64,000 bases of DNA from Gammaproteobacteria bacterium (GCA_041984235.1 JBHIYN010000001.1:164985-228984); one strand, 5' to 3'. Counted from the stretch's first letter, positions 5,541 through 39,388 are shown. The notes: a model not told the origin generated them from the letters alone. A program made the numbers and translations.

Positions 5541-8500
5541 TCAGGGCACGGTGTCGCCGGTCGTGCCTTCGGCCGGCGCCCCGGCCGCGGCATCCGTGGC
5601 CGGGGCGTCGTCCTGGTAGGGGTGCGGATCGTCGCCCAGCCAGCGGTGCTTGATGTTGCCGATGAGGCCGGACAGCGGCCGCGTGACACCGCCCTTGACG
5701 GTGCCGTCGGCCGCGGCCTGCACGATCTCGGCGAAGTTCGACTCGGCGGCGGCCGGTGTGCCGCGGATACGGAACTGTGGACCCCTGTAGTAGCCGTACT
5801 CGTCCTGCGAGTCTTCCAGCAGGTCCATGCTGTAGAGGATGGCAGCACCCTTGCCGCTCATGTTGAGGCGCGCGTCGAGATTGAGCGGGCTGTCGAGAAT
5901 GTCCTTGCCGTCCGCGTAGTCGATCCCGCCATGGGCCGTGAGGCTGATGGTCGGGCTCTGCACCAGGAACTGCCGGATGACGATGTCGCGGCTGTCGTCG
6001 CGCACCACGTGGATGTCGATGCGGTCGTAGTCGATGACCTGGATGTAGTTGACCAGGCGTGACAGGGCGCCCGCGCCAAAGCCGCCGGTCGGCAGGTAGG
6101 AGAGCCCCTCGCCGACCACGCCGAGCACGTCGGAAGCGCCCGACATCAGCGCGCTGTCCGGCGGCAGCGGCCGGAACAGCCCGGCACGGCTGGCGAGCTT
6201 CATATCGAACAACAGCTCGTTGCGGTACTGGGCCATGTTCGGAGACTGTCCGTAGCCGTTCACGGCGACGCTGAACAGGCCCTCCACCCGCGGCTTGCTG
6301 CCCGGCACCAGCTCGGTGAAGAACTGGTTGAGGTCGAACTCCTTGATCGTGCCTGCAAGCTGCAGGTCATAGGGCGCGGCGCTGCCGGCATTGAAATCGA
6401 GTGCACCGTCGAAACGCATCGGGCTGTCGTGGAAGTCGGCGCCGAGCTCGGACAGGGTCAGGCGGGTCGGCGTGAGATCGATCTTGCCGGCCACGTCGTC
6501 GAAGATGACGTAATCGGTGTAGTAGAGGCTGTCGATACGGTAGTCGACCCGGGCCGCGTAGGGCAGCAGGTCCCAGAAGGCGCGCTGGTCGGGCTCGGTC
6601 GCTGCCGCCACCGGCCGCACCGTCGCCGGCTCGGCGTCCGCGTCCTGCTTGCGGTCTTTCTTGCCGCGTTTCATCGCCGTCTTGCCGCGCGGCGCGGCGA
6701 TCGCGTCCAGCGCCGCCAGCACGTCGTTCAGGTAGAAGCGCCCGGAGCGGAAATCCAGCTCGAGCAGCGCCTGCTCCGCGTCGCTCGGGTCGTAGGTCGC
6801 GCGCAGCAGGCCGTCCGTACGTCCGCTGCGGCCTTCGCCGCCAAGCGGCATCTCGAAACTGAAGCCCACCCCATCTGGCTGCATGGCGCCGTCGGCGCGG
6901 GCCTGCATGCGGCCCACCGCCAGCGGCGAGTCCGCGGCAAGGTCGGCCAGGGTCGCGGTCCCGCCGATGCTGCCGTCCTCGTCGACCGTGGCTTCGAGCT
7001 GCAGCGCGCCGCGCGCGAGGCGGTGGCCGGGCAACAGCGCCGGTTGCTCCAGCAACGCCGGCAGGTGGCCGACGAGGCCGGCGCGCATGTGGCGCAGCGG
7101 CACGCGGTGCTGGGGCTCCAGGGCGAAGCTCATGCTGCCGCTGAGCGCGGCGTCGGCGTCTCCGGCGAAGGCCAGCGCGACCGTTTCCAGCGCGGCCTCC
7201 AGGCGTTGTCCCCGTGCCTCTATCTCACCCGCGGCGGTGAACGAGAAGGGGCGCAGCAACGGGCCGTCCGCGCCGCTCACGCGCACGCCGTCCAGGCGCA
7301 GGGCCTCGCCGAGGTCGGCGTGCAGGCTGTCACCGTCGGAATCGAGGGTCGCGCGTGCGCTGAGCGCGTCGAAGGCCAGCGGACCCAGGTTCACGAGGTC
7401 GGCAAGCAGGGCCGAGGACAGGTCCTCGACCTCGGCCGAGAAAGTCCCGCTGAGATGCCGGGCGAGCGGTTCGTCGGCGTCGATGTGCGGGCGCACGATC
7501 AGCGGGGTCGCGTTGGCCAGGCTGAGGAGGGTCCGTTGGTCGGCGGACAGTGCCGCCGTCAGCCGGGAAACGTCGACCCGGTCAGGGGTGGCGGCGAGGT
7601 CGTAGTCGAGATCGAGCCGCCAGCGGTGCTGCGGGTCGATGTCGCCCAGCGCCGCCACTAGCGCGGCGACGCGGTGCAGGGCATTGAGCGATACGCGGGC
7701 CGTGCCGCGCGCGCTGAGCGGCCGTTCGGCGCTGCCCTCGCCCAGCGGCACGCCGACCTCGCCCGCGCCCTGCAGCAACTCGACGCCGCCGACGCGCGCA
7801 TCCAGCGCGGTATAGCGGAGCGCCGCGCGCTCCGGGTGATAGCTGAGCTCGGGACGCACACTGAGCGATAGGCGCTCGACCAGCGCGCCGTCCGCACCGC
7901 GTACGGCCACGTCGCGGAGCCGCAGCGCCTCGCGGCTGGCGAGGCTGAGCTGTGCGTCGTCACCCGCGCTCAGCGTGAAGCTGCCGGCCTCCAGCGTACC
8001 GCCGATAGCGAAGCCCGCGACGAAGGGATCCAGCCAGGCCAGGTCGAGCGCCTGCAACTGCACCAGGGCGAGTTCACCGGCCGGGTTGCGCAGCGCCGGC
8101 GCGCCTGCGCCGAGGCCGATGGCAAACGGCTGCAGTGCCGATACCTGTACCAGCGGCGCCGCGCCGTCGTGCGCGACGGAGAATTCGAGCTCGCTGATCC
8201 GGATGCGCTCCGGCGCGGGTGCCAGCGCCGCGCGGAAGGCGGCGGCCAGGCCGGCGGGCAGGGTGTAGGGCTCCAGCCGCTGCGCCAGCGGCGGCACACG
8301 GGCCACGGCATCGAGGTCGATCTCGCCGCTGACGGTAACGGCAGGCGCGGCCGCGCCGGTACTGCCGCGCGCCAGCGTGGCGCCGGCCTGCAGCGTGGCC
8401 AGGATCGAGTCGCCGAGCGCCAGGCTGAGCGCGTCGAGCCCGATCTCGATGCGTTTCGCGCCGATCCGGGCGCGCGGGCGCAACGACACGCGGACGTGCT

Positions 8501-10022
8501 GCTCGATGCCGAAGGCGGGGGTCAGCGTCGCGGCCTCCACCCCCAGCGGCTGCAGCGGCCGCACGGCGAGGGCGCCGCCGCCGGTGACCAGCTCGAAAGC
8601 ACCGCCCAGGGCACCCTCGGCTACGGCGGGCTCCGCCAGCAGGCCGTTGAGCCACGGCAGCGGCAGCGCGGTCAGGGTCAGCGTGGCACGCGTTGCTTCC
8701 TCGTCCATGACGGCCGCGGGCTGGTCCAGGGGGACTTCGAGCGGGGCGCTCAGCGAGAATTCGATCAGCGCCTGCTCCGGCCCCCGCGTCAGGCGTGCAC
8801 CGGCTTCGTGCAGCTCGGCCCGGCCGTCCGCTAGGTAGGCGCCGAGCCGCGTGCCGAGGTTGAGCACGGTCGGCAGCCCGGTGGCCGGACCGAGTACGCG
8901 CTCCAGCTCCTCGATGCGCATGTCGCCCGCGTAGTCGGCGCCGACTGCGCCGCTGCCGAGGTCGGCGAGAAAGGTGCCGTGCCCGCGCTCGCTGAAGCGC
9001 GGCACGCGCGCTTCCGGCGCGTAGGCGAGGACCAGGCCGTAGTCGAAGCCGAGCTCGAAGTCGCCGGCGGCGACGTGCGCGTCGGCGTCGTAGGTACCGG
9101 TAACGCCGAGGCGGACGAGATCGCCGTCACCGCCGGGCTTGGCCAGCACCAGCTCGAAGCGGTCGCCCGCGATGCGGGTCGCCTCCGCTGCGTCCGGGTC
9201 GCCGGCGGGCTCGCGCAGCGGTGTGGCGCTGAGCTCGATCGCCACGATTTCCTCGTCCGGCAATGCCTGCGCCGCCACCAGCGCGAGCAGGTCCGCGGCC
9301 ACGGCGCTGATCGTGCCCGCGTCGCCCTGGGTCAGGCTGACCGGGCCGGCGACCTCGATGCGGGCGCCGTCGCCGGCGCGTGTCGCCACCAGGTCGAGAT
9401 CCAGCGTGCCGGTCGCTTGCGGCGCCAGGCCGCCGCCGCCGAGACGGAACTCGACCACGAGATCGGCGGCCGGCAGCGCCTCGCCGCTGATCGCGACCCC
9501 GTCCAGTGCCACTCCCCAGCCGTGGTCGAGCAGCGTGAACAGGCCCGGAAACGGCGGCGCTGGATCGGCCGCCGGCGGCATCCCGCGGGTGTCGATCCCG
9601 AGGCCGGCGATGGCGAGGCGATTCACTGCGACGACCCGGAACAGCGCCTGCCACGGCGAGAAACCGAGCTCGGCATCGCGCAGGTGCAGCACCACGCCCT
9701 GGTGCGCCAGCTCGAGACCGCTCACCGACAGCGACCATGGCAGCAGATGCACACGCTCCACCTCGAAGCGGTCGACCCGCGCGCCCATCTGGTCGCGCAG
9801 CACGCGCGTCTGCAGCCGCGGATGGAACAGCGTGACGAGCACCGCGCACACCAGCAGCGCGGTTATCGCGAGCGGCCAGCGGCGGCGATGCAGCCACTGC
9901 CGCAGGCGCGACGCCGGGAGTTTGTCGGTGGAGGTCACGGGGATCGGGGTCGGCGCGCCCGCCGTGGCGTCCCGCGGATGGTCGGGTGCCCGCTGGCGCG
10001 AAGAAGCTTGTGGGAGCGGCAT
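5541..10022 (-). CDS. AsmA/YhdP-like giant envelope protein (1493 aa)
   Basis: A single N-terminal transmembrane helix (WPLAITALLVCAVLVTLF) is followed by a very long Ala/Gly/Leu-rich repetitive beta-rich region and an AsmA-like C-terminal region. The start is uncertain. Confidence 0.6.
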   Translation of the reverse strand: MPLPQASSRQRAPDHPRDATAGAPTPIPVTSTDKLPASRLRQWLHRRRWPLAITALLVCAVLVTLFHPRLQTRVLRDQMGARVDRFEVERVHLLPWSLSVSGLELAHQGVVLHLRDAELGFSPWQALFRVVAVNRLAIAGLGIDTRGMPPAADPAPPFPGLFTLLDHGWGVALDGVAISGEALPAADLVVEFRLGGGGLAPQATGTLDLDLVATRAGDGARIEVAGPVSLTQGDAGTISAVAADLLALVAAQALPDEEIVAIELSATPLREPAGDPDAAEATRIAGDRFELVLAKPGGDGDLVRLGVTGTYDADAHVAAGDFELGFDYGLVLAYAPEARVPRFSERGHGTFLADLGSGAVGADYAGDMRIEELERVLGPATGLPTVLNLGTRLGAYLADGRAELHEAGARLTRGPEQALIEFSLSAPLEVPLDQPAAVMDEEATRATLTLTALPLPWLNGLLAEPAVAEGALGGAFELVTGGGALAVRPLQPLGVEAATLTPAFGIEQHVRVSLRPRARIGAKRIEIGLDALSLALGDSILATLQAGATLARGSTGAAAPAVTVSGEIDLDAVARVPPLAQRLEPYTLPAGLAAAFRAALAPAPERIRISELEFSVAHDGAAPLVQVSALQPFAIGLGAGAPALRNPAGELALVQLQALDLAWLDPFVAGFAIGGTLEAGSFTLSAGDDAQLSLASREALRLRDVAVRGADGALVERLSLSVRPELSYHPERAALRYTALDARVGGVELLQGAGEVGVPLGEGSAERPLSARGTARVSLNALHRVAALVAALGDIDPQHRWRLDLDYDLAATPDRVDVSRLTAALSADQRTLLSLANATPLIVRPHIDADEPLARHLSGTFSAEVEDLSSALLADLVNLGPLAFDALSARATLDSDGDSLHADLGEALRLDGVRVSGADGPLLRPFSFTAAGEIEARGQRLEAALETVALAFAGDADAALSGSMSFALEPQHRVPLRHMRAGLVGHLPALLEQPALLPGHRLARGALQLEATVDEDGSIGGTATLADLAADSPLAVGRMQARADGAMQPDGVGFSFEMPLGGEGRSGRTDGLLRATYDPSDAEQALLELDFRSGRFYLNDVLAALDAIAAPRGKTAMKRGKKDRKQDADAEPATVRPVAAATEPDQRAFWDLLPYAARVDYRIDSLYYTDYVIFDDVAGKIDLTPTRLTLSELGADFHDSPMRFDGALDFNAGSAAPYDLQLAGTIKEFDLNQFFTELVPGSKPRVEGLFSVAVNGYGQSPNMAQYRNELLFDMKLASRAGLFRPLPPDSALMSGASDVLGVVGEGLSYLPTGGFGAGALSRLVNYIQVIDYDRIDIHVVRDDSRDIVIRQFLVQSPTISLTAHGGIDYADGKDILDSPLNLDARLNMSGKGAAILYSMDLLEDSQDEYGYYRGPQFRIRGTPAAAESNFAEIVQAAADGTVKGGVTRPLSGLIGNIKHRWLGDDPHPYQDDAPATDAAAGAPAEGTTGDTVP

Positions 10023-14464: not shown

Positions 14465-16903
14465 CTACAGCGTCAACCGGCGCAGTCGCAGTGCGTTGCC
14501 GATTACCGAGACCGAGCTCAGGCTCATGGCCGCGGCCGCGATCATCGGGCTCAGCACGATGCCGAAGAAGGGGTAGAGCACGCCGGCAGCGACGGGTACC
14601 CCGGCACTGTTGTAAGCGAAGGCGAAGAAGAGGTTCTGGCGGATGTTGGCAATCGTCGCCCGTGACAGGCGCCGCGCGCGCACGATGCCACGCAGGTCGC
14701 CGCGCACCAGGGTCACCGCGGCGCTCTCCATGGCGACATCGGTGCCGGTGCCCATCGCGATGCCGACGTCGGCGCGCGCCAGCGCCGGTGCGTCGTTGAT
14801 GCCGTCGCCGGCCATCGCCACCACCCGGCCTTCCCGCTGCAGCGCGCTGACGCGCTCGGCCTTGTCTTCCGGCAGGACACCGGCGTAGACCTCGTCGATA
14901 CCGAACTCGCGCGCTACCGCCGCGGCCGTGGTCGCATGATCGCCGGTCAGCATGACGATTTGCAGGCCCTCGGCACGCAACGCGGAGACCGCTTCGCGCG
15001 CGCCCTCGCGCAGCGGGTCGGCGACCGCGACCAGTCCCGCGACCTGCCCGTCCTCGGCCACGAACACGACCGTCTCGCCCGCTTCGCGCAGGGCCGCGGC
15101 GCGCGCCTCTAGGGCACCGGCGTCGAGACCGTCCGCGGCCATCAGCGCGGCATTGCCGAGCGCCACCGCGCGCCCTTCGATGCGGCCGCGCACGCCGAGA
15201 CCGGTGGCCGATTCGAACGCTTCGGGTGCGACCGTGGCAATGCCACGCCCGCTGGCGCCGCGCACGATCGCCGCGGCCAGCGGGTGCTCGCTGCCGCGCT
15301 CCAGCGAGGCGGCGATACGCAGCACGTGATCGGCCTCTCCGCCGTTCGCCGCCTCGACCGTGGTCAGGGCCGGCCGCCCCTCGGTCAGGGTGCCGGTCTT
15401 GTCGACCAGCAGGGTGTCGACGCTGCGCAGGACCTCGATCGCCTCGGCATCGCGAAACAGCACGCCGGCCGCCGCGCCCTTGCCGGTCGCGACCATGATC
15501 GACATGGGCGTGGCCAGCCCCAGCGCGCAGGGGCAGGCAATGATGAGTACCGCGACGCTGTTGACCAGTGCATGCGCCATCGCCGGCGGCGGACCGAACA
15601 GCGCCCACACGGCGAACGTCACGATGGCGATGCCGATCACCGTTGGCACGAACCAGCCGGCGACGACGTCGGCGAGACGCTGAATCGGCGCCCGGCTGCG
15701 CTGCGCTTCTGCGACCAGGGTAACGATGCGCGAGAGCAGGGTGTCGGCGCCGACCCGGCGCGCCTCCATGACCAGCCCGCCGCGGCCGTTGACGGTGGCA
15801 CCGGTGACGTCATCGCCGGGCCCTTTCTCGACCGGTACCGCCTCGCCCGTGATCATCGACTCGTCGACCGCACTGGTCCCATCCACGACGACACCGTCGA
15901 CCGGGATCTTCTCGCCCGGCCGCACGCGCAGCCGATCGCCGACCGCCACCGCGTCCAGTGCGACGTCGTGTTCGTCGCCCGCGGCGTCGATGCGGCGCGC
16001 GGTCGCCGGGGCCAGGTCCATCAGCTCGCGAATGGCGGTGCCGGTGTGGGCGCGCGCGCGCAGCTCGAGCACCTGGCCGACCAGGATCAGCGTAACGATG
16101 ACGGCGGCCGATTCGAAGTACACGGGGACGGCGCCATCCGCACCACGGAAGGCGGCCGGGAAGAGCTCCGGCGCCAGGGTGGCCACGGTGCTGTAGCCGA
16201 AAGCCACGCCGACCCCCAGACCGATCAGGGTGAACATGTTCGGGCTGCGATTCACGACCGAGCGCCAGGCACGCTGGTAGAACGGCCAGCCCGCCCACAG
16301 GCACACCGGCACCGCCAGCGCGAGCTCCAGCCAGGGGCGGACACCGTACCCGAGCGCGCTGGAAACCGGGTGTCCCGGCAGCATGTCGAACATCGTCAGC
16401 GCGACCAGCGGCACCGAGAGCAGGGCGGCGAGGACGAGGCGCCGGCTCATGTCGTCGAGCTCGGGATTGGCCTCGTCGACGGTGATCGTGGTCGGCTCCA
16501 GTGCCATGCCGCACAGCGGGCAGTCACCCGCTTCGTCGCGCACGATCTCGGGATGCATGGGGCAGGTCCACTGCGTGCGCCGCGCAGGCTGCGGCAGACC
16601 CTTGACCTCCAGCGCCATGCCGCACCTGGGGCAGTCGCCCGGACCGACCTGCTCGACCTCGGGGTCCATGGGGCAGGTGTAGACGGCGTCGGCCGGGCCG
16701 TCCTGCGCGGCTGCGCGCAGCGCGGGATCGAGGTAGCGTTGCGGGTCGGCCGCGAACTTCTCGCGGCAGCCGTTGCAGCAGAAGTGGTACACGGTGCCGG
16801 CGTGCTCGTGCCGGTGCGTGCTGTCGGTGCTGACCTGCATACCGCAGACCGGATCGCGGAGCTCCTCCGCGCCGGGCTGCAGCGGGCTCGTCGACTGGTT
16901 CAT
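14465..16903 (-). CDS. copA: copper-translocating P1B-type ATPase
   Basis: An N-terminal YHS-type domain ('DPVCGMQV...[12 protein letters not shown]') and two 'TCPM(D/H)PE...GDCP(R/L)CGMALE' metal-binding repeats are present. ATPase hallmarks include the transmembrane CPC motif '[13 protein letters not shown]', 'DKTGTLT' and '[10 protein letters not shown]'. The start is at 'MNQSTSPL' with a GAGGA SD. Confidence 0.9.
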
Positions 16904-24645: not shown

Positions 24646-25122
24646 TCATGCTCCTCGCATTTCAGCCGCGGCGTTCATGACCGCGCGAATGATCTTGTCG
24701 TAGCCGGTGCAGCGGCACAGGTTGCCGGCGAGCCAGTAGCGCGCCTCGGTCTCGGTCGGGTCCGGGTTCGCCTCGAGCAGCGCCTTGGCGGCGACGATGA
24801 AGCCCGGCGTGCAGATACCGCACTGCAGGCCGGCTTCCTCGAGGAAGTGACGCTGCACCGGGTGCAGCTCCTCGCCCTCGGCGACGCCTTCGATGGTCTC
24901 GATGCTGGCGCCCTCGGCCTCGGCACCGAGCACCAGGCAGGAACAGACCAGGCGTCCGTTCATCATGATGCTGCACGCGCCGCAGTCGCCCGAAGCGCAG
25001 CCCTCCTTGCTGCCGGTCAGGCCGAGTTCGTCACGCAGGCAGTCGAGCAGGGTCTGCTCGGTGTCGCACAGGAACTCGGCCGGGTCGCCGTTGATGGTCG
25101 TGGTGACGTGATGTTTGGCCAT
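24646..25122 (-). CDS. (2Fe-2S)-binding small subunit of a Mo hydroxylase (CoxS-like)
   Basis: Two [2Fe-2S] cysteine clusters are present: 'CASGDCGACSIMMNGRLVCSC' and 'CGICTPG...CRCTGY'. Confidence 0.9.
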   Translation of the reverse strand: MAKHHVTTTINGDPAEFLCDTEQTLLDCLRDELGLTGSKEGCASGDCGACSIMMNGRLVCSCLVLGAEAEGASIETIEGVAEGEELHPVQRHFLEEAGLQCGICTPGFIVAAKALLEANPDPTETEARYWLAGNLCRCTGYDKIIRAVMNAAAEMRGA

Positions 25123-28574: not shown

Positions 28575-29351
28575 ATGAAGCCTGAACTGGTCAAGCTCGA
28601 CGTGGTCGAGGATTTCGTGGCGGTGGTGACGCTGGACAACCCGCCGGTCAACGCGCACAGCCAGCGCCTGCTCGAAGAGGTGGCCTGGACCTTCGACACC
28701 GTCAGCGACCGCGAGGACATCCGCGCCGCGGTGCTGACCGGTGCCGGCAAGTGCTTCTGTGCCGGCGCCGACATCAAGGAACGCGTCGGGCGCACGCCGC
28801 AGCCGGGCGACCACTGGCAGAACAGTCGCCGCGCCCGCGAGGCTTACCACAGCATCATGGAGTGCCGTAAGCCGGTCATCGCCGCGATCAACGGCCCGGC
28901 GCTGGGCGGCGGGCTGGCGCTCGCGGCCTCCTGCGACATCCTGCTGGCGAGCGAGGACGGCTGCCTGGGTCTGCCCGAGATCAACGTCGGCCTGCTGGGC
29001 GGCGGCCGCCACAGCCAGCGCCTGTTCGGGCATTCGCGCCTGCGCCGCATGATGCTCACCGGCATGCGCCTGTTCGGACCCGAGCTGTACCGCCTGGGCG
29101 TGGTCGAGGCGTGCACCGCGCCGGACGCGCTGATGGACGAGGCGCTCGCGATCGCCCGCGAGATCGCGGCCAAGAGCCCCGTCGCAAGCGTGCTCGCCAA
29201 GCACGCGCTCAACCAGATCGAGGAGATGACGCTGCGCGACGGCTACCGCTTCGAGCAGACCATGACCGGCGAGCTCGGCAAGACCGAGGACTCGAAGGAA
29301 GCGATGCGCGCGTTCGTGGAGAAACGCACGCCGCAATTCAAGGGCCGCTGA
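28575..29351 (+). CDS. enoyl-CoA hydratase/isomerase
   Basis: 'VLTGAGKCFCAGADIKE' and 'AAINGPALGGGLALAASCDILLAS' are present. A GAGGGGA SD precedes the ATG. It is divergent from the fused ACAD. Confidence 0.85.
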   Translation: MKPELVKLDVVEDFVAVVTLDNPPVNAHSQRLLEEVAWTFDTVSDREDIRAAVLTGAGKCFCAGADIKERVGRTPQPGDHWQNSRRAREAYHSIMECRKPVIAAINGPALGGGLALAASCDILLASEDGCLGLPEINVGLLGGGRHSQRLFGHSRLRRMMLTGMRLFGPELYRLGVVEACTAPDALMDEALAIAREIAAKSPVASVLAKHALNQIEEMTLRDGYRFEQTMTGELGKTEDSKEAMRAFVEKRTPQFKGR

Positions 29352-29381
29352 GCAGGCCGTACCCCTCCGGGAGAACCGTCC

Positions 29382-29909
29382 ATGAGTATCGAATTCGTCG
29401 ACCCACGTGGCGAGACACGGCGCGCCGCGCAAGCCTATGAACATGTCCTCGACGTCACCGTGCCGGCGACCATCGGCCTGCTGGCCAACGGCTTTCCCGA
29501 CTCGGTCGCGTTCCTGGACGCGGTCGAGGTCGCTCTGGGCGAGGCGCTGCCGCAGGCGAGCTTCCGCCGCTACGCCAAGCCGGGCGCCTCGGCGCCGGCC
29601 GACAGCGCGCTGGTCGCCCGCATCGCGGCCGAGTGCGATGCGCTGGTGACCGCCTACGGGCACTGAGGCAGCTGCACATCCGGCACCGTGCGTGACGGCA
29701 TTGCACTGGCCCGCGAGGGGCGCCCGGCGGTGGCCTTCGTGACCACCAAGTTCGAGCCGCAGGGCGACTTCGTCGCCCGCGCCGAGGGCATGCCCGACGT
29801 GCCTCGCGTGATCGTGCCGCACCCGGTGGCCGGCATCGGTGCTGCCGCCATGGCCGCGCTGGCGCGCGACATCGCCGTCACCGTGGTCGAACGGCTGCGC
29901 GCCGGATGA
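29382..29909 (+). CDS. UGSC-motif selenoprotein; TGA at 29664..29666 read as selenocysteine
   Basis: Track ORFs 29382..29666 and 29688..29909 are in the same frame, separated only by one TGA. Read-through gives '...AYGH-U-GSC-TSGTVRDGIALAREG...'. There is a GGAGAA SD before 29382. The gene is co-oriented with selA and selB downstream, and tRNA-Sec is present in the window. Confidence 0.75.
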
Positions 29910-30973
29910 GCGCGCTGCTCAGCGCGGCCGATGCCGATGCCGCACTCGAGCGACTGCACGCCCTGCGCTGCACGGACGGCCTGCCGGTGGTCATTCCGAC
30001 CCCCGAGCGCGTCTCGCGGCTGGTGCTCGCGAGCGGGCTGGACGCCGACATCGAGCTCGGCGTGATGGGGCCGGGTTATGGCGTCGCCACCGTGGAGAAG
30101 GTTGCCGCCTGCGCGGTCATGGCCGGCTGCCTGCCCGACCACATGCCGGTGGTCGCGGCCGCCGTGCGCGCGGTGTGCCGGCCCGAGTTCGATCTCACCG
30201 AGATGCAGTGCACCACGCATGCCATCGCACCGCTGGTCGTGGTCAACGGTCCGGCGCGCGCGGCCGGCGGCTTCGCCTCCGGCTTCGGGCTGATGGGGCC
30301 CGGCCACCGCGCCAACGCCAGCGTCGGCCGCGCCCTGCGCCTGGCCATGATCAACATCGGCGGCGCGCGCCCGGGCGAATCCGACATGGCCATCCACGGC
30401 TCGCCGGCCAAGTTCTCGCTGTGCTTTGCCGAGGACGAGGCGGCCTCGCCCTTCGCGCCGCTGCACACGACCTTCGGCTACGCGCCCGGCGACAGCGCGG
30501 TCATGGTGCTCGGCGTCGAGGGCCCGCACTCGGTGCTGTTCAGCGGCGATGCCGGCGATAGCGCGTCGGCCGAGGCCCTGCTCGACACCCTGGCCGCGGT
30601 GATCGCCAATCGCGGCAGCAACAACTCCTACCTCGGCGGCCGCGCCGCGGTCGCGCTGGTGCTCAATCCCGAGCATGCCGCGATCCTGGCCGGGGCCGGT
30701 CATGGCCGCGAGTCCGTGCAGCAGGAGCTCGCCGCGCGCGCGGTGACCCCGCGCGAAATCCTGCAGCGCCTCAATCCGAAGATGCTGCAGGGCGAGGAAG
30801 CCCTGATCCCGGCAGTGCGCGATCCGGCCCGGGTGCACCTGATGGTGGCCGGCGCGCCCGGCCTGTACTCGGTCGTGATGCCGTCGTGGTGTGCCGGGCC
30901 ACACGGCAACGTCGCGGTGCACGCGGCGGTCGAGCTGGACCCGTACTGCGAATTACCCACGGCCTCCCGCTGA
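29906..30973 (+). CDS. conserved hypothetical protein (355 aa), translationally coupled to the UGSC selenoprotein
   Basis: A long intact ORF whose start overlaps the upstream stop by 4 nt (ATGA). Family not recognised from sequence; it is not SelD-like. Confidence 0.55.
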   Translation: MSALLSAADADAALERLHALRCTDGLPVVIPTPERVSRLVLASGLDADIELGVMGPGYGVATVEKVAACAVMAGCLPDHMPVVAAAVRAVCRPEFDLTEMQCTTHAIAPLVVVNGPARAAGGFASGFGLMGPGHRANASVGRALRLAMINIGGARPGESDMAIHGSPAKFSLCFAEDEAASPFAPLHTTFGYAPGDSAVMVLGVEGPHSVLFSGDAGDSASAEALLDTLAAVIANRGSNNSYLGGRAAVALVLNPEHAAILAGAGHGRESVQQELAARAVTPREILQRLNPKMLQGEEALIPAVRDPARVHLMVAGAPGLYSVVMPSWCAGPHGNVAVHAAVELDPYCELPTASR

Positions 30974-31040
30974 GCGCCGCGCCGCCGCGATCTGCTAGGC
31001 TGTGACGCTGCCGGGTGCAACGGCCCGGGGGGAGAATGTC

Positions 31041-32129
31041 ATGTCCGATCTGTATGCCGACGCCGCGGTCACGGTACGCGAGGATCTCGCCGCCGCGCAC
31101 GCGCGCAGCCTGGCCAGTTTTAGCGCGCCGGGAACCTGGTTCGACGGCGCGACCCGCGCCGGCCTGGCCGGCGAGGCGCGGCAGGCCCGCGCAGAGGCCG
31201 GCCTGCAGCCGGGCACGCCGCCGACGGAGGGGGGCGGCGCGGTGCCCGCGGCCGCCGCGCGCGTGGTCCGGCGGATTGCCGCCGACCCGACCGACCTCGA
31301 TCGCAGCCTGTTCGACGATGCCTGCGCCGAGGGTCTGAGCGAGGAAGAGTACGTCGAATGCGTCGGCATTGCCGCGCGCATCAGTAACCTCGACATGTTC
31401 GCGCGCGGCCTCGGCGTCGCACCGCGGCCGCTGCCGCCGGTCAGCGCCGGCGAGCCGAGCCGACGGCGTCCGGCCGCGGCGGTCGCGGAGGGCGCCTGGG
31501 TGGCGACGATCCCCAACGGTGAGGCCGGCGGCGCCGAGGGTGCCGCGCTCTACGGCGGGCAGTGGGCGGCCAACATCCTGCGCGCGCTCAGCCTGGTGCC
31601 CGCCGAAGCCGCGGACCTGATTGCCTTGGGCGACGTGCAGTACGTCTCGGTGGCCAACTTCATGGACTTCGGCTACTCGCACGACCCGGCCATCTCGCGG
31701 CAGCAGGTCGAACTGGTGGCGGCGCGCATCTCCGCGCTCAACGCCTGCTTCTACTGAACCTCCTGGCATGTGCAGCTGCTCCGTGCGAGCGGCCAGTCGG
31801 GACAGAAGACTTACGAACTGAAAGGGGTTACCGATCGTGCGCTCGCTATCGGCGTGGACGACGAGGACGTCTTGCTGGCCTTCGCCGACGCGGTCTTCGG
31901 CGGGCCGCAGGCTGCGCTCGACGCGGCGCGCAGCGCGCTGCGCCATCGCCTGGGTGACGGCGGCCTGGTCGAGGCCGCGATCACCGCGGCGAATTTCAGC
32001 CTGGTCGATCGCGTCGCCAACAGCATCGGTATTCCGCTCGATGGCATGGCCATCGAGCAGACGGCCGATTTTCGCGAACCGCTCGGCATCAACCGCTTCC
32101 CTTCGGCGCGCAATACGCTCGGCGGCTGA
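31041..32129 (+). CDS. AhpD/carboxymuconolactone-decarboxylase-like selenoprotein (CxxUxxxH); TGA at 31755..31757 read as selenocysteine
   Basis: Track ORFs 31002..31757 and 31770..32129 share a frame and are separated by one TGA. Read-through gives 'NA-C-F-Y-U-T-S-W-H', matching the AhpD core CxxCxxxH motif with Sec in place of the second Cys. A 'ggggggagaa' SD precedes the ATG at 31041. selA lies immediately downstream. Confidence 0.75.
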
Positions 32130-32159
32130 ACCGCCGCCGGGCACACGGACGGCGGCGCC

Positions 32160-33584
32160 GTGAGCGACGGCGCCGAGGCCAACGCGGCGCTGCGGGCGGT
32201 GCCGTCGATCGACGAGTTGCTGCGCGGTGCCGATGCCGCCCGCCTGGTCGATGCCTGGGGCCGCGAAGCGGTCGTCGCGGCCTTGCGCGAAGCGGCCGAC
32301 GCGGCGCGCGCGGCACTCGCCGGGGGCGCTGCGGCGGCGCGTGCGCAGGCGTCGGCGGAGGCCCTGGTCGCGGACGCGGCCGCCCGCCTCGCGGCGCTGA
32401 TGGCGCCGGCGCTGAAGCCGGTGTTCAACCTCACCGGCACGGTGCTGCACACCAATCTCGGACGCGCGCCGCTGCCGGCCGAGGCGATCGCGGCGATGAG
32501 CGCGGCGGCCGGTGCCAGCAACCTCGAGTACGACCTCTCGACGGGACGCCGCGGCGATCGCGATGCGCTGGTCGAGGACTGGATCTGCCGCCTCACCGGG
32601 GCCGAGGCGGCGACCGTGGTCAACAACAACGCCGCCGCCGTGCTGCTGCTGCTGAACACGCTCGCGCGGCGCCGCGAGGTGCCCGTGTCGCGCGGCGAGC
32701 TGGTCGAGATCGGCGGCGCCTTCCGTATTCCCGACGTCATGGCGCGGGCCGGCAGCAAGCTGGTCGAGGTCGGTACGACCAACCGTACCCATGCGCGTGA
32801 TTTCGAGGACGCGCTCGGTGCGCGCAGCGCGCTGCTCATGAAGGTGCATACCAGTAACTACGTGGTCGAGGGTTTCACCGCCGCGGTCGCCGAGCCCGAG
32901 CTGGCGCGCATCGCGCATGCAGCCGGTGTGCCGTTCGTGGTCGATCTCGGCAGTGGCACGCTGACCGACCTGTCGCGCTTCGGCCTGCCGCGCGAGCAGA
33001 CCGTCGCCGAGACCCTGGCCAATGGCGCCGACCTGGTGACCTTCAGCGGTGACAAGCTGCTCGGCGGCCCGCAGTGCGGCATCATCGCGGGGCGCGCCGA
33101 TCTCGTGCGCCGCATCAAGAAGAACCCGATGAAGCGCGCCCTGCGCGTGGACAAGATCACGCTCGCCGCGCTGGGCGCGGTGCTGCGCCTGTACGGCGAT
33201 CCCGCACGCCTGCCCGAACGCCTGCCGGCGCTGCGCCTGCTGACCCGCGACGAGGCCGACATCCGCGCCGCTGCCGAGCGGCTGCTGCAGCCGCTGCGTG
33301 CGGCACTGGGCGCTGCCGCGACGGTCGACGTCGTCGCCTGTCGCAGCCAGATCGGCAGCGGCGCCCTGCCGGTCGACCTGTTGCCGAGCGCCGCGCTGCG
33401 CATCACGCCGCCGGGCCGGCGCGGGCGGGCACCGGAGCGGCTGGCCGCACGCCTGCGCGCGCTGCCGCTGCCGGTCATCGGTCGCATCGCGGACGGCGCC
33501 GTGCTGCTCGACCTGCGCTGCCTGGACGACGAGGCCGGATTCGTCGACCAGCTGGCGCTGCTGGGCGAGGGTGAAGCGCCGTGA
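32160..33584 (+). CDS. selA: L-seryl-tRNA(Sec) selenium transferase
   Basis: The PLP-lysine region '[20 protein letters not shown]', '[15 protein letters not shown]' and the N-terminal 'VPSIDELLR' are present. The start is GTG. Confidence 0.9.
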
Positions 33585-35494
33585 TCGTCGCCACCGCCGG
33601 CCACGTCGATCATGGCAAGACGCTGCTGGTGCGGGCGCTCACCGGTGTGGACACCGACCGCCTGCCGGAGGAGAAGCAGCGCGGACTGACCATAGAGCTC
33701 GGCTTCGCCTACCACGATCTCGGCGACGGCGAGATCACCGGCTTCATCGACGTGCCCGGCCACGAGCGCTTCATTCGTACCATGATCGCCGGTGCCAGCG
33801 GCATCGACGTGGTGCTGTTCATCGTCGCCGCGGACGACGGCCCGATGCCGCAGACCGCGGAGCATCTCGCGATCCTCGACCTGCTGGGGGTGCAGCGCGG
33901 GGTGGTCGCATTGACCAAGGTCGACCGGGTCGACGACGCGCGCCTGCAGGCGGTTACCGTCGAGTGCCGCCGCCTGTTCGAACCGACGCCGCTGGCGATG
34001 GCTCCGATCGTACCCGTTTCGGCGCTCGAAGGCCGCGGCATCGATCTGCTGCGCGAGGTGCTGCTGAAGCTCTCCGCCGAGGTGCCGCCGCGTGTGGTCG
34101 CAGGCAATTTCCGCCTCGCCATCGATCGCAGCTTCCTGCTCAAGGGCGCCGGACGGGTGGTGACCGGCACCGTCTTCTCCGGGCAGGTCGGCGTCGGCGA
34201 GGCGGTGTGTCACGTCCCGGGCGGCGAGAGCGTGCGGGTGCGCGGCATCCACGCCCAGAACCACGAGGCGGAGTCGGCCGGCGCCGGCCTGCGCACCGCG
34301 CTCAACCTGGCCGGCAGCGGGCTGCGCGACGGCGATCTGCATCGCGGTGACTGGATCGTCGCTGACGGCGCCGCGTTCTCCACCCGCCGGCTCGACGCCA
34401 TGCTGCGCGTGCTGCCGGGGGAGAGCCGGGCGCTGCGCAATCGCACCCCGGTGCACGTGCACGTCGGCGCCGCCGACGTCACCGGCCGCGTCGTGACCTT
34501 CGACGGCAAGGCCATAGAGCCCGGCGCGGAGGCGCCGGTGCAGTTGCTGCTCGACCGCGAGCTGCACGCGGTCCACGGCGACCGCATCGTGCTGCGCGAC
34601 CAGTCGGCGCGGCGTACCCTGGGCGGCGGCACGGTCATCGATCCGGTGCCCGACGTCCGCGGCCGCTCGCGCAGCGAGCGCGTACGTTACCGTGAAGCGA
34701 TGTCGTGTGACGACCCGGCCGCGGCCCTGGACGCGGCCCTGGCGGCGCTCCCCGACGGCATCGAGCTCGATCGCTTCAGTCGCTGCTGGAATCTTACCGC
34801 CGCGGAGGCCGAGGCACTGTTCGCGCGCAGCGCGATGGTGCGCGTCGACCGCGGCGACGTGCGGCTCGGTTTCGAGCCGGCGCGCTGGCAGGCCCTGCAG
34901 GACATGCTGCCGCCGGCGGTGGCGGCGGTTCATGCCGAGGCGCCCGACCGCCCCGGTGCCAGCGAGGCCGAGATCAACCGCAAGCTGCCCGAGCGCCTGC
35001 GTCCCGCACTGCTCGCGCTGCTCGTCGAACAGCTCGTCGCGGCCGGTACCCTGGAACGCAACGGCGCCGTGGTGCGCGTGCCCGGTCACGCTGTGCAGCG
35101 CTCGCCGGCCGACGAGAAGCTGTGGCGGCGGGTCGGGCCGATCCTCGAAAAGGCCGCGTTGAAGGCGCCGGTGGTGCATGACCTGCACGAGGCGCTGCAC
35201 ATCGACCTCAAGCTGCTGGAGGGTTTCCTCGGGCGCTCTGCGCAGCAGGGTTACCTGGTGCGCGTGAGCGCCAAGCGTTACTTCCTGCCGGACAGCATGC
35301 GCACTTTCGAGACCATCGTGCTGGAGCTTGCGCGCACCCAGCCGGATGGCGTATTCACCGTTGCCGATTTTCGTAACCGCGCCGGCATCGGCCGCAATGC
35401 GGTGGTCGAGATCCTGGAATACTTCGACCGCGTCGGCCTGACCCGGCGCCACGGCCAGGTGCGCCGGGTCGTCGGCACGCCCACCCATCTCTGA
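33581..35494 (+). CDS. selB: selenocysteine-specific translation elongation factor
   Basis: The GTPase G1 motif '[16 protein letters not shown]', 'DVPGHERFI' and the long C-terminal winged-helix extension are present. It overlaps selA by 4 nt (GTGA). Confidence 0.9.
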
Positions 35495-36747: not shown

Positions 36748-36829
36748 GCAGGACTAGCGCACGTGGGTCAGAATTAAATTCTGACCCCTTCCGAACCCCG
36801 TCCCCTGCGACCCTGATAGCATAGGCGGC

Positions 36830-36925
36830 GGAAGAGCATCGCCACCCGGTGGGGCGCCCGGTCTTCAAAACCGGTGAGACGGCCGCAGGGTCGTCTGGCA
36901 GGTTCGACTCCTGCCTCTTTCGCCA
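36830..36925 (+). tRNA. selC: tRNA-Sec (anticodon UCA)
   Basis: The 96-nt sequence is 'GGAAGAGC...GGTCTTCAAAACC...GCAGGTTCGACTCCTGC...CTCTTTCGCCA'. The anticodon loop is 'CUUCAAA' with anticodon UCA. It has a long variable arm and an extended acceptor, and the T-arm is identical to E. coli selC from memory. Confidence 0.85.
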
Positions 36926-36986
36926 CTTCATCCGCCGGCGGGGCCAGGCTCGGCCCCGCCGGCGATTCTCCGGGGGGAGGAGCAAC

Positions 36987-37475
36987 ATGCAGTTCCATCA
37001 CATGGCCGTGTTCGTCAGCGACATGGCGGAGGCGGTGCGCCTGTGGCGTGACGTGCTCGGTTTCAAGGTCGCGGTCGAAACCACCATTCCGGATGGCCCC
37101 GAACCGGGACCCAGGACCTACATGTACCCGGCGCTGCTCGACGACATCTTCAAAGTCGAGGGCGCAAAATCAAAAATGGTCCTGCTGATGTCCGACGAGG
37201 GCGCGCTGATTGAGCTGCAGGAATGCGAGAACCCCGCCATCCAGCGCACGCCGAAGGAGAACCTGCGCTACGGCCACACCGGCTTCCACGAGCTCGGCCT
37301 GCTGGTGGACGATATCGACGGTTGGTTCGAGAAGGTGCGCGCGGCCGGTTACGAGACCCAGACCGACTACGTCTGGACCTGCGCCAGCATCGGCCGCTCG
37401 TTCCTGTTCTACGATGCCGACGGCAACATGATCCAGCTCTGGGAGCACACCGCGGAGCCGACCTGGGAGACCTGA
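36987..37475 (+). CDS. VOC-family (glyoxalase/bleomycin-resistance/dioxygenase fold) protein
   Basis: 'MQFHHMAVFVSDMAEAVRLWRDVLGF' is typical of the VOC fold. A 'ggggggaggag' SD is present. Confidence 0.7.
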   Translation: MQFHHMAVFVSDMAEAVRLWRDVLGFKVAVETTIPDGPEPGPRTYMYPALLDDIFKVEGAKSKMVLLMSDEGALIELQECENPAIQRTPKENLRYGHTGFHELGLLVDDIDGWFEKVRAAGYETQTDYVWTCASIGRSFLFYDADGNMIQLWEHTAEPTWET

Positions 37476-37485
37476 GCGGGGGCGC

Positions 37486-38088
37486 TCAGCCGTCCGTCTC
37501 GCTGACCTCGATACCGCTGGTAAGGTCCGCCGCGGCGCTCGCCGCGGGCGTCGCCTTGAGCATGATGTGCAGCACGTTGCCGAGCTTCGCCTGCAGCGCT
37601 TCGTCGGCGATCTTCGGCAGGATCACGGGGAAGCTGACCAGCTCGATGTAGCTGTCGTCGATCAGCACCAGGGGCACGCGCCGCTTGACCTCCATGATGG
37701 TGCGGAACACGGCCGCGAACTCGCCGACCAGGGCGTACTGGTCGTCGCGCCGGATCTGCTCCAGCAGGCGCTGCTCGGAGATCGAGGAGATCCCCTTGCG
37801 CAGGTGGTAGCCGGCATCGGTCTCGCCGATGTCGTCGAACCACTTGCCGTAGAAGGGCATGCTGCCGTGCCAGTCGACGCCGAGCTGAGGGTCGGGCAGG
37901 CCGACGCGGCCGATGACGGGCACCTCGCTCGCGCTGAAGCTGCCTTCGTCCTCGATCTCGACATTGTCGCCAATGCTGCGTATGCGGCTGACCGCGTAGC
38001 CGCTCGGCTTGGCGACGGCAATGAGGGTGCGGCGCAGGCCGAGACCTGCGAGCTTCTTCGCCACCGCCATGCGCTTCGAGCCGGGCAT
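37486..38088 (-). CDS. hypothetical protein (200 aa)
   Basis: An intact ORF immediately downstream of the Trx-fold selenoprotein on the same strand. Family not recognised. Confidence 0.5.
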   Translation of the reverse strand: MPGSKRMAVAKKLAGLGLRRTLIAVAKPSGYAVSRIRSIGDNVEIEDEGSFSASEVPVIGRVGLPDPQLGVDWHGSMPFYGKWFDDIGETDAGYHLRKGISSISEQRLLEQIRRDDQYALVGEFAAVFRTIMEVKRRVPLVLIDDSYIELVSFPVILPKIADEALQAKLGNVLHIMLKATPAASAAADLTSGIEVSETDG

Positions 38089-38209: not shown

Positions 38210-39388
38210 TCAGCGTACCGGCGTCAGGTCCGGTGCCGGGTAGTAGGGCGTATCGCCGAGCGCGTCGACCGCGGCCCAGAACTCGGGTGCGGTGTTGAGC
38301 TCACCGACCAGCTCGGGGTCCAGCATCATGCTCTGGCGGCGGTAGTTCCAGCTCTCCGGGCACAGCCGGGAGGCCTCGCTGAAGTGTTGCTTGGCCGCGT
38401 CCAGCGCGCCGCTGACGTAGAGCTGGCGGCCGAGGCGCACGTGCGCAGCCGCGCGCACCGCGTTCTCGTCCGGCCCGCGCAGACGGCGCCTGACCTCGTC
38501 CGGCGGCAGCACGTAGGGGCTGTCGGCACCGTTCTTCACCCAGTCACGCAGCGCGTCGATGTAGGCACAGCGCACGCTGGCGCCTTCGTTCGCGGCGGCG
38601 TCCGGGATCTCCATGGTCTCGCGGTTGAGGTGCCGCACCATGTCGATGGTGCCGGCGGATTCGGCCGGGCGCACGATGCGGCCCTGCTCGTCGATCCATA
38701 CGCTCTGCGGCACGTTGACCATGCCGTAGAGCTCGGCGACGAGGTGGTTCTCGTCGATCAGGCAGGGGTAGGTCGGCGGCTTCTGGTTCTGCCACAGCTC
38801 CGGTGCCCAGCCCATCAGGCGGGCCAGCATTTCCGGCCGCTCGGCGATGTCCAGGGCGCGGATGCTCTTTTCGACCGCGGCCTTGCCGGCGGTGTCGAAT
38901 GCGATGGCGAGGATTTCAAGTCCGTCGCCGTGCAGCTCTTCGTAGATTGCCTGCCACACGGGCAGGTCAAAGCTGCAGCCTCAGTAGGAGCCCCACGAGA
39001 ACATGAACACTTTCTGCCCGCGGTAGTCGGACAGGGAGTGCAGCCTGCCGTCGAGATCGGGCAGCGTGAAGTCGGGCGCCTCCAGCGACATCATCTGGTC
39101 GCGCAGACTGCTGACCGACTCGCCGAACGACCACGCGTCGTGCGTCTCGTCGCGCACCAGCGGCTGGTGCATGTGCTCGGCGAAGGCGGCGAGATCGACA
39201 CGGCCCTGGTCGTCGCGCCAGGCGTCGTCGGCGCGCACGCAGGCGTCGCCGCGGCACAGGCCCTCGGGTTGCAGTTTCCAGCCGGTTGCGGCGGCCAGGT
39301 CGTCCGGGCTGAGCCACAGATGCCCGCCGTCGGCAACCGCGTCCGCCACTTCGGTGACGCGGTCGTCGTAGAGAATCGTTGCGCTCAT
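38210..39388 (-). CDS. thioredoxin-fold (TlpA/peroxiredoxin-like) selenoprotein; TGA at 38981..38983 (minus strand) read as selenocysteine
   Basis: Track ORFs 38981..39388 and 38210..38959 share a frame and are separated by one TGA. Read-through gives 'APDFTLPDLDGRLHSLSDYRGQKVFMFSWGSY-U-GCSFDLPVWQAIYEELHGDGLEILAIAFD', with Sec at the position of the redox-active Cys after the beta-strand. A GAGGAGC SD precedes 39388. Confidence 0.75.

Follow-up and report, generated by a model that had tools for sequence, protein, structure and literature searches.

A selC gene with a 12-bp acceptor/T helix in a selA-selB-selC cluster flanked by selenoprotein genes in an uncultured gammaproteobacterium

A 64,000-nt stretch of DNA from a Gammaproteobacteria bacterium (GCA_041984235.1, JBHIYN010000001.1:164985-228984; the whole stretch is called the window below) was analysed around its selC gene, which encodes the selenocysteine (Sec) tRNA, tRNA-Sec:

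36830-36925, plus strand: selC, tRNA-Sec gene (ARAGORN, Rfam RF01852 and a hand-defined cloverleaf)

We are highly confident that this is a functional selC of an uncultured gammaproteobacterium, of the 7/5 class and acting with the local selA, selB and client genes. The tRNA belongs to the 12-bp 7/5 class with an extra linker nucleotide, C8 (position 7a), and not to the classical 8/5 class; its annotation as tRNA-Sec is correct despite the 12-bp helix. An earlier note, made from the sequence alone, had taken the 96-nt sequence with a UCA anticodon for selC and had proposed an ARAGORN run as a check. In the 64-kb window ARAGORN called exactly one tRNA, a tRNA-SeC with anticodon tca at exactly 36830-36925. 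Rfam RF01852, which agreed with it independently, matched 36830-36921 over its full length (model positions 1-91; 62.6 bits, gathering score 47, E = 2.3e-10), which is far beyond chance, and was the sole Rfam family match in the window. The UCA anticodon lies in the 7-nt loop CUUCAAA (tRNA positions 34-40). The identity elements for seryl-tRNA synthetase (SerRS) are present, namely the discriminator G73 (G93 in gene numbering) and a long variable arm; the 3' CCA is encoded in the gene directly after G73.

The acceptor stem is made of seven contiguous pairs, G1-C92 to G7-C86, including a G2.U91 wobble. The 5-bp T stem (G69-C85 to G73-C81) is followed by only 7 nt (CUCUUUC) before the discriminator and CCA. 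On the 5' side the gene reads GGAAGAGC and then AU, and three nucleotides (C8-A9-U10) link the acceptor stem to the D stem; C8 is unpaired because C85 already pairs with G69 in the T stem. The acceptor/T helix thus has 12 bp, compared to the 13 bp (8/5) of the classical criterion. The earlier note had described the acceptor stem as 7 bp plus one mismatch: the seven pairs are there, but C8 is an unpaired linker base and there is no mismatch within an 8-bp stem. The D stem has six positions (pairs 11:27 to 16:22) and a 5-nt loop; position 15:23 is A.G in the window and U.G in 6 of 8 close relatives, and Rfam draws this arm differently, with a bulged A15 and a 4-nt loop. The anticodon stem has 5 bp. 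The variable stem, 8 bp in length, closes a 4-nt loop and bears out the long variable arm of the earlier note. Compensatory changes among the eight relatives were found in pairs 12:26, 33:41, 48:67, 49:66, 52:63, 53:62, 54:61, 70:84 and 71:83, which span the D, anticodon, variable and T stems, and the energy of the cloverleaf comes to within 1.2-2.6 kcal/mol of the minimum free energy; a cloverleaf kept in this way is a selected structure and not a product of decay. Alternative 8/4 and 6/6 acceptor/T arrangements were rejected, as the G69-C85 pair is invariant and leaves C8 no possible partner.

The same 7-nt 3' acceptor strand was found in the window, in four related loci with 59-73% identity to the window in SelA (L002, L004, L006 and L010) and also in the relative L207. 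By contrast, 34 dereplicated proteobacterial selC genes outside this clade have an 8-nt 3' strand (8/5 shape, 13-bp helix). Metagenome contigs were scanned by pattern for the 3' end of a 7/5-type tRNA, and the yields are lower bounds: at least 65 distinct tRNA-Sec sequences, in at least 26 clusters at 90% identity, share the 7/5 shape, and the variant is therefore common in the environment. Among the matches listed, G73 followed by CCA was present in all of the dereplicated 7/5-type sequences (70/70).

The short acceptor stem is already known, as a published 7/5 variant. In 2017, Santesmasses, Mariotti and Guigo presented 47 bacterial genomes whose tRNA-Sec has the 12-bp 7/5 shape and reported the form with the extra linker nucleotide 7a for Gamma- and Alphaproteobacteria; these tRNA genes are mostly in selABC clusters, and the genomes have selenoprotein genes, selA, selB and selD (PMC5330540). 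Mukai et al. likewise mention species with a 12-bp tRNA-Sec (PMC5389517). The window tRNA is like the linker-7a type, with a 3-nt linker between the acceptor and D stems and no bulge inside the acceptor stem. It differs from the published 7/5 type in a C.U mismatch at the sixth anticodon-stem position, and in the window an esterase gene stands between selB and selC. The locus is an ordinary example of a known Sec-decoding system, and its selenoprotein families already have NCBIfam models. It provides a further natural case of a 7/5 tRNA-Sec beside intact selA and selB genes and clients bearing Sec insertion sequence (SECIS) hairpins, which is relevant to how SelB discriminates tRNA-Sec from elongator tRNAs and to engineered Sec insertion.

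The E. coli selC sequence used for comparison was confirmed (100% identity to the annotated tRNA-Sec in 5,425 E. coli genomes). As blastn of the window tRNA against E. coli genomes gave no match at E = 1e-5, the two were aligned directly, and 75 of the 99 alignment columns agree (approximately 76% identity). The UCA anticodon, G73-CCA, the GGAAGA... 5' end, the 6-pair D stem and the long variable arm are alike in both. The T arm, which the earlier note described as identical to that of E. coli selC, matches at 16 of 17 positions (GCAGGUUCGACUCCUGC in the window and GCAGGUUCGACUCCUGU in E. coli); the loop and four stem pairs are the same, but the closing pair is G-C in the window and G.U in E. 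coli. E. coli selC has 8 acceptor pairs, a 2-nt linker and a 13-bp helix, whereas the window tRNA has 7 pairs, the unpaired C8, a 3-nt linker and 12 bp. Moreover, E. coli selC is solitary and unlinked to selAB, while the window selC lies 1.3 kb past selB.

The window has approximately 70% G+C, and raw lists of open reading frames (ORFs) are crowded with spurious frames. Real genes were picked by third-position G+C (GC3) and family scans, and the gene calls of the source contig gave the same set. The genes for Sec synthesis and delivery and for the client selenoproteins are:

32160-33584, plus strand: selA, L-seryl-tRNA(Sec) selenium transferase, 474 aa (TIGR00474, 575.7 bits against a cutoff of 267.9)
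33581-35494, plus strand: selB, Sec-specific elongation factor, 637 aa (TIGR00475, 410.7 bits against a cutoff of 242.25)
29382-29909, plus strand: UGSC-family selenoprotein gene, TGA at 29664-29666, motif H-U-G-S-C (Pfam PF24696)
31041-32129, plus strand: AhpD-related CFYUT selenoprotein gene, TGA at 31755-31757, motif C-F-Y-U-T (NF041238)
38210-39388, minus strand: ResA-like WAxxUGC-family selenoprotein gene, thioredoxin fold, TGA at 38981-38983, motif W-G-S-Y-U-G-C

SelA also matched its Pfam family with E = 7.8e-154, and SelB contains the Pfam domains GTP_EFTU, domain 2, SelB beta-barrel and winged-helix 2 and 3. With TIGR00474 and TIGR00475 above their cutoffs and three genes with an in-frame TGA, the selA-selB-selC module flanked by selenoprotein genes that the earlier note had proposed was supported. 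The UGSC protein scored 159 bits with PF24696 (cutoff 25), of which it is a clear member, and 114.4 bits with NF041046, under the cutoff of 125; its in-frame TGA is kept in both homologues (L050 and L081). The AhpD-related protein scored 359.5 bits with NF041238 (cutoff 175), and the TGA is at the same residue in 8 of 8 homologues from related loci. The full-length WAxxUGC protein, with U replaced by C, scored 319.1 bits with NF041054 (WAxxUGC_long, cutoff 300). Compared to the NCBIfam families UGSC_fam (NF041046) and AhpD_rel_CFYUT (NF041238), the UGSC and CFYUT motifs of the window are exact, while the WGSYUGC motif has G in place of the A of WAxxUGC_long. A scan of the window for in-frame TGAs with high GC3 on both sides revealed no further redox-motif candidate.

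Bacterial SECIS elements, as in fdhF and in the bSECISearch criteria, are hairpins just past the UGA with G/U in the apical loop, approximately 16-37 nt away. The three window hairpins listed here all fit for position and loop content (distances are counted from the U of the UGA):

29680-29698, plus strand: candidate SECIS apical hairpin of the UGSC gene, CGUGC loop at +24 to +28
31775-31793, plus strand: SECIS apical hairpin of the AhpD-related gene, 7-bp stem, CGUGC loop at +28 to +32
38950-38966, minus strand: candidate SECIS apical hairpin of the WAxxUGC gene, 6-bp stem, CGUGU loop at +24 to +28

The AhpD-related hairpin is at the same position in eight orthologues, with compensatory changes in the stem (GCUGCUC/GAGCGGC, GCUACUU/AAGUGGC and GAUGCUC/GAGCGUC), and both UGSC homologues have a hairpin at approximately +14 to +35.

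In the E. coli pathway, SerRS charges tRNA-Sec, SelA converts Ser to Sec and SelB delivers the product to UGA. By analogy, SerRS would charge the window tRNA with serine via G73 and the long variable arm, and SelA, whose gene lies 3.2 kb upstream of selC, would turn Ser-tRNA into Sec-tRNA. SelB·GTP would then bind both the Sec-tRNA and the SECIS hairpin and bring the tRNA to the in-frame UGA, being recruited by the hairpin 20-30 nt past each UGA. The selenium donor enzyme, SelD, would be encoded elsewhere in the genome.

Several results weigh against a functional 7/5 selC working in this way. Baron and Bock reportedly found in 1991 that binding moves from SelB to EF-Tu when the acceptor stem of the E. 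coli tRNA is cut to 7 bp, and by this stem-length rule alone a 12-bp tRNA should fail with an E. coli-type SelB. The tRNA shape is, however, kept beside intact selA, selB, TGA codons and SECIS hairpins across many lineages, and these conservation data argue that the cognate SelB would accept the 12-bp tRNA-Sec. The unconstrained minimum-energy fold of selC is a 6/6 arrangement and not the cloverleaf (z = -2.3); as the free-energy fold misses the cloverleaf, comparative analysis was used for the structure. The folds of the three SECIS hairpins, in sequence of 70% G+C, were not better than those of shuffled sequences (z = +1.7, -0.5 and -1.4), and the comparison with orthologues therefore carries the weight. 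Finally, no selD was found within the approximately 79-kb region searched. The earlier note had already stated that this gene is absent from the window, where the best match of E. coli SelD in tblastn had E = 3, and there was no AIRS-domain gene among the genes called from approximately 8 kb upstream to approximately 7 kb downstream of the window. E. coli likewise carries selD apart from selAB and selC, and the absence of selD from this region therefore says little.

The following elements flank selC:

36814-36822, plus strand: extended -10-like element, TG-a-TAGCAT, read from the sequence; its last T is 7 nt before G+1
36765-36787: perfect 11-nt inverted repeat, past the esterase stop codon and before selC, no T run (repeat search)
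36933-36964: perfect 13-nt GC-rich inverted repeat starting 8 nt past the selC CCA (repeat search)

The upstream repeat may be a terminator or a processing hairpin, and the downstream repeat may be a terminator or a 3'-processing hairpin. As these two perfect hairpins bracket selC and the -10-like box precedes it, selC looks like a separate transcription unit. Scans with strict sigma-70 (two-hexamer) and terminator consensus patterns around selC gave no match, so the argument for the -10-like box comes from its positional conservation. Among the matches listed, 29 of 63 unique 7/5-type selC genes and 12 of 26 sequence clusters have a TAnnnT hexamer with its end at -8, usually with an upstream TG; at each of the other offsets, from -4 to -19, it was found in 0-3 of the 63 (approximately 1.4% per position is expected by chance). 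No TAnnnT peak was present at any offset in 31 unique 8/5-type selC genes, and in E. coli a TATAAT box is 31 nt upstream of selC, whereas the window box ends 7 nt upstream. The TGnTAnnnT box is also present in L002, L004, L006, L010, L207, L208 and many of the loci L086-L205. The simplest interpretation of its fixed offset is a promoter with a start at G+1 or C-1. We tentatively propose, as a possibility that we consider less probable than its negation, that 7/5-type selC genes have their own TGnTAnnnT promoter with a start at one of these two nucleotides, giving a leaderless transcript or a 1-nt leader with little or no need for RNase P. Eukaryotic tRNA-Sec is made without a 5' leader. No paper on the placement of a -10 box or on a near-leaderless 7/5-type selC was found in the library searched; if confirmed, the strictly placed box would be an unusual near-leaderless route to a bacterial tRNA and may be new.

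A start at C-1 would leave a 5' nucleotide that, if retained, could form a pair with G73 and so bring back the 13-bp helix, which SelB presumably measures. The mature tRNA would then keep C-1 paired with G73, in the manner of G-1:C73 in tRNA-His. The window, L002, L004, L006 and L207 all have C at -1, and L010 has U; of 70 dereplicated 7/5-type genes among the matches listed, 46 carry C and 18 carry T there, which makes 64 of 70 with a pyrimidine able to pair with G73. However, the 8/5 controls also have a pyrimidine at -1 in 27 of 34 genes (79%), with no G, and E. coli selC, a true 8/5 tRNA, has C-1 too, and the C-1:G73 pair is therefore given low weight. Covariation gives no help, as G73 is invariant. 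Transcription starts commonly follow the Y-1/R+1 rule (pyrimidine at -1, purine at +1), and a start at G+1 would predict the pyrimidine at -1 just as well. We consider a retained C-1 improbable, and prefer a tRNA with a plain 12-bp helix.

A 12-bp acceptor branch is also the length recognised by EF-Tu, and some bacteria do have tRNA-Sec-like suppressors whose branch is 12 bp long (PMC5389517). The window gene could on this account be a selC*-type tRNA-Cys or an allo-tRNA opal suppressor that inserts Cys or Ser at UGA via EF-Tu. Nevertheless, selC* tRNA-Cys has U73 and an 8/4 shape, whereas the window tRNA has G73 and a 7/5 shape. It is accompanied by intact selA and selB genes far above their cutoffs, and the client genes carry SECIS hairpins, needed only for SelB delivery. 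The genomes with a 7/5 tRNA-Sec also contain selenoprotein genes, selA, selB and selD (PMC5330540). A look-alike of this kind is very improbable. It is just as improbable that selC is decaying, the loss of the nucleotide opposite C8 being disabling and the Sec trait being lost in the lineage: compared to L030 (GGAAGAGC / GCUCUUCC) the clade does resemble a 1-nt deletion of the G pairing with C8, and the relative L003 has a truncated selC remnant and a frameshifted esterase gene, but the 7-nt strand is kept where SelA is 59-73% identical and in at least 26 tRNA clusters, compensatory changes are found elsewhere in the tRNA, TGA and SECIS are kept in the client genes, and selA and selB are intact.

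With a functional 7/5 selC as the preferred reading, the remaining genes of the cluster and its borders are:

28575-29351, plus strand: enoyl-CoA hydratase, left border of the cluster (NF005073, 401 bits against a cutoff of 296)
29906-30973, plus strand: uncharacterised UGSC partner, 355 aa, start overlapping the UGSC stop codon
35509-36747, plus strand: beta-lactamase-fold esterase, 412 aa (Pfam PF00144, E = 4.7e-51)
36987-37475, plus strand: VOC/glyoxalase gene, between selC and the third selenoprotein gene
37486-38088, minus strand: gene for a 200-aa protein of unknown function, between selC and the third selenoprotein gene

The plus-strand order given in the earlier note (enoyl-CoA hydratase, UGSC, unknown partner, AhpD-related CFYUT, selA, selB, esterase, selC) was correct. 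The third selenoprotein gene, which it had placed just beyond selC, is present, with the added detail that it is on the minus strand and two genes away. The selB start overlaps the selA stop codon by 4 nt, and we infer that selA and selB are translationally coupled. The esterase start is 2-15 nt past the selB stop codon across the clade members, which suggests that selA, selB and the esterase gene are probably co-transcribed. All the clade members examined (L002, L003, where it is frameshifted, L004, L006, L010 and L207) keep the esterase gene in this place, after selB and before selC; a LipL-like NCBIfam match falls below cutoff, and we know of no link between this esterase and selenium metabolism.

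Among 80 selA loci from other species, 44 have a tRNA-Sec gene near selA, on the same strand and nearly always downstream of selB. The window shares gene order and strand with the proteobacterial selA-selB-selC clusters, but in most of these selC directly follows selB, whereas in the window clade the esterase gene intervenes. The closest loci by SelA identity are from uncultured Pseudomonadota and Gammaproteobacteria metagenome-assembled genomes (MAGs). The backbone of the clade is enoyl-CoA hydratase, selA, selB, esterase and selC, and hydratase orthologues (75-87% identity) are upstream of selA in L002-L007 and L010. The interval between the hydratase gene and selA varies:

L005, L006 and L007: no genes
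L002, L003 and L010: AhpD-related gene alone
L207: UGSC and its partner
Window (29352-32159): UGSC, its partner and the AhpD-related gene

This interval seems to be a recurrent insertion spot that collects Sec-containing genes.

Some observations were made on related loci and on the client genes. In L003, on a 2.6-Mb gammaproteobacterial contig, a degenerate selC remnant (14683-14755) ends before the T arm; the esterase gene beside it is frameshifted, while the neighbouring AhpD-related gene keeps its TGA. The site may have been disrupted, or that genome may have a second selC in another place. In the relative L208 (1-1020), the gene for a 725-aa protein with Pyr_redox_2, AIRS and AIRS_C domains, a SelD fused to an NADH-dehydrogenase-like domain, adjoins selC, selB, selA, UGSC and the partner gene, and this indicates the form that selD could take in the genome of the window. 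The three unrelated selenoprotein families of the window share the apical pentaloop CGUG[C/U], perhaps a motif by which SelB recognises SECIS hairpins in this lineage specifically. In the public gene calls for the source MAG, each of these three genes is broken at the UGA into two ORFs, so that the record annotates them wrongly; the halves should be merged and labelled as genes for Sec-containing proteins. A TGA also links pairs of ORFs in one frame at 24646 (CoxS/CoxL-type subunits), 46177 (hydrolase/membrane protein) and 4000 (GGDEF/luciferase-like); considered as selenoprotein candidates, these were rejected as ordinary adjacent genes. Elsewhere in the window, a 1,493-aa ORF on the minus strand (5541-10022) shows a strong coding signal (GC3 0.90); it is among the genes called for the source contig, with no Pfam match on record.

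The UGSC partner had no Pfam or NCBIfam match in the family scans. Its family is large, with at least 4,660 homologues, each of them either unnamed or 'hypothetical', and it adjoins UGSC, in either order, in five other loci (L050, L081, L207, L208 and L209). Its AlphaFold2 model is confident (predicted local distance difference test 85.6, predicted template modelling score 0.88), and comparison with solved structures revealed no credible relative. Seven residues are invariant (C75, H105, C173, H187, H208, H257 and H333), and this protein is an obvious route to the function of the UGSC selenoproteins.

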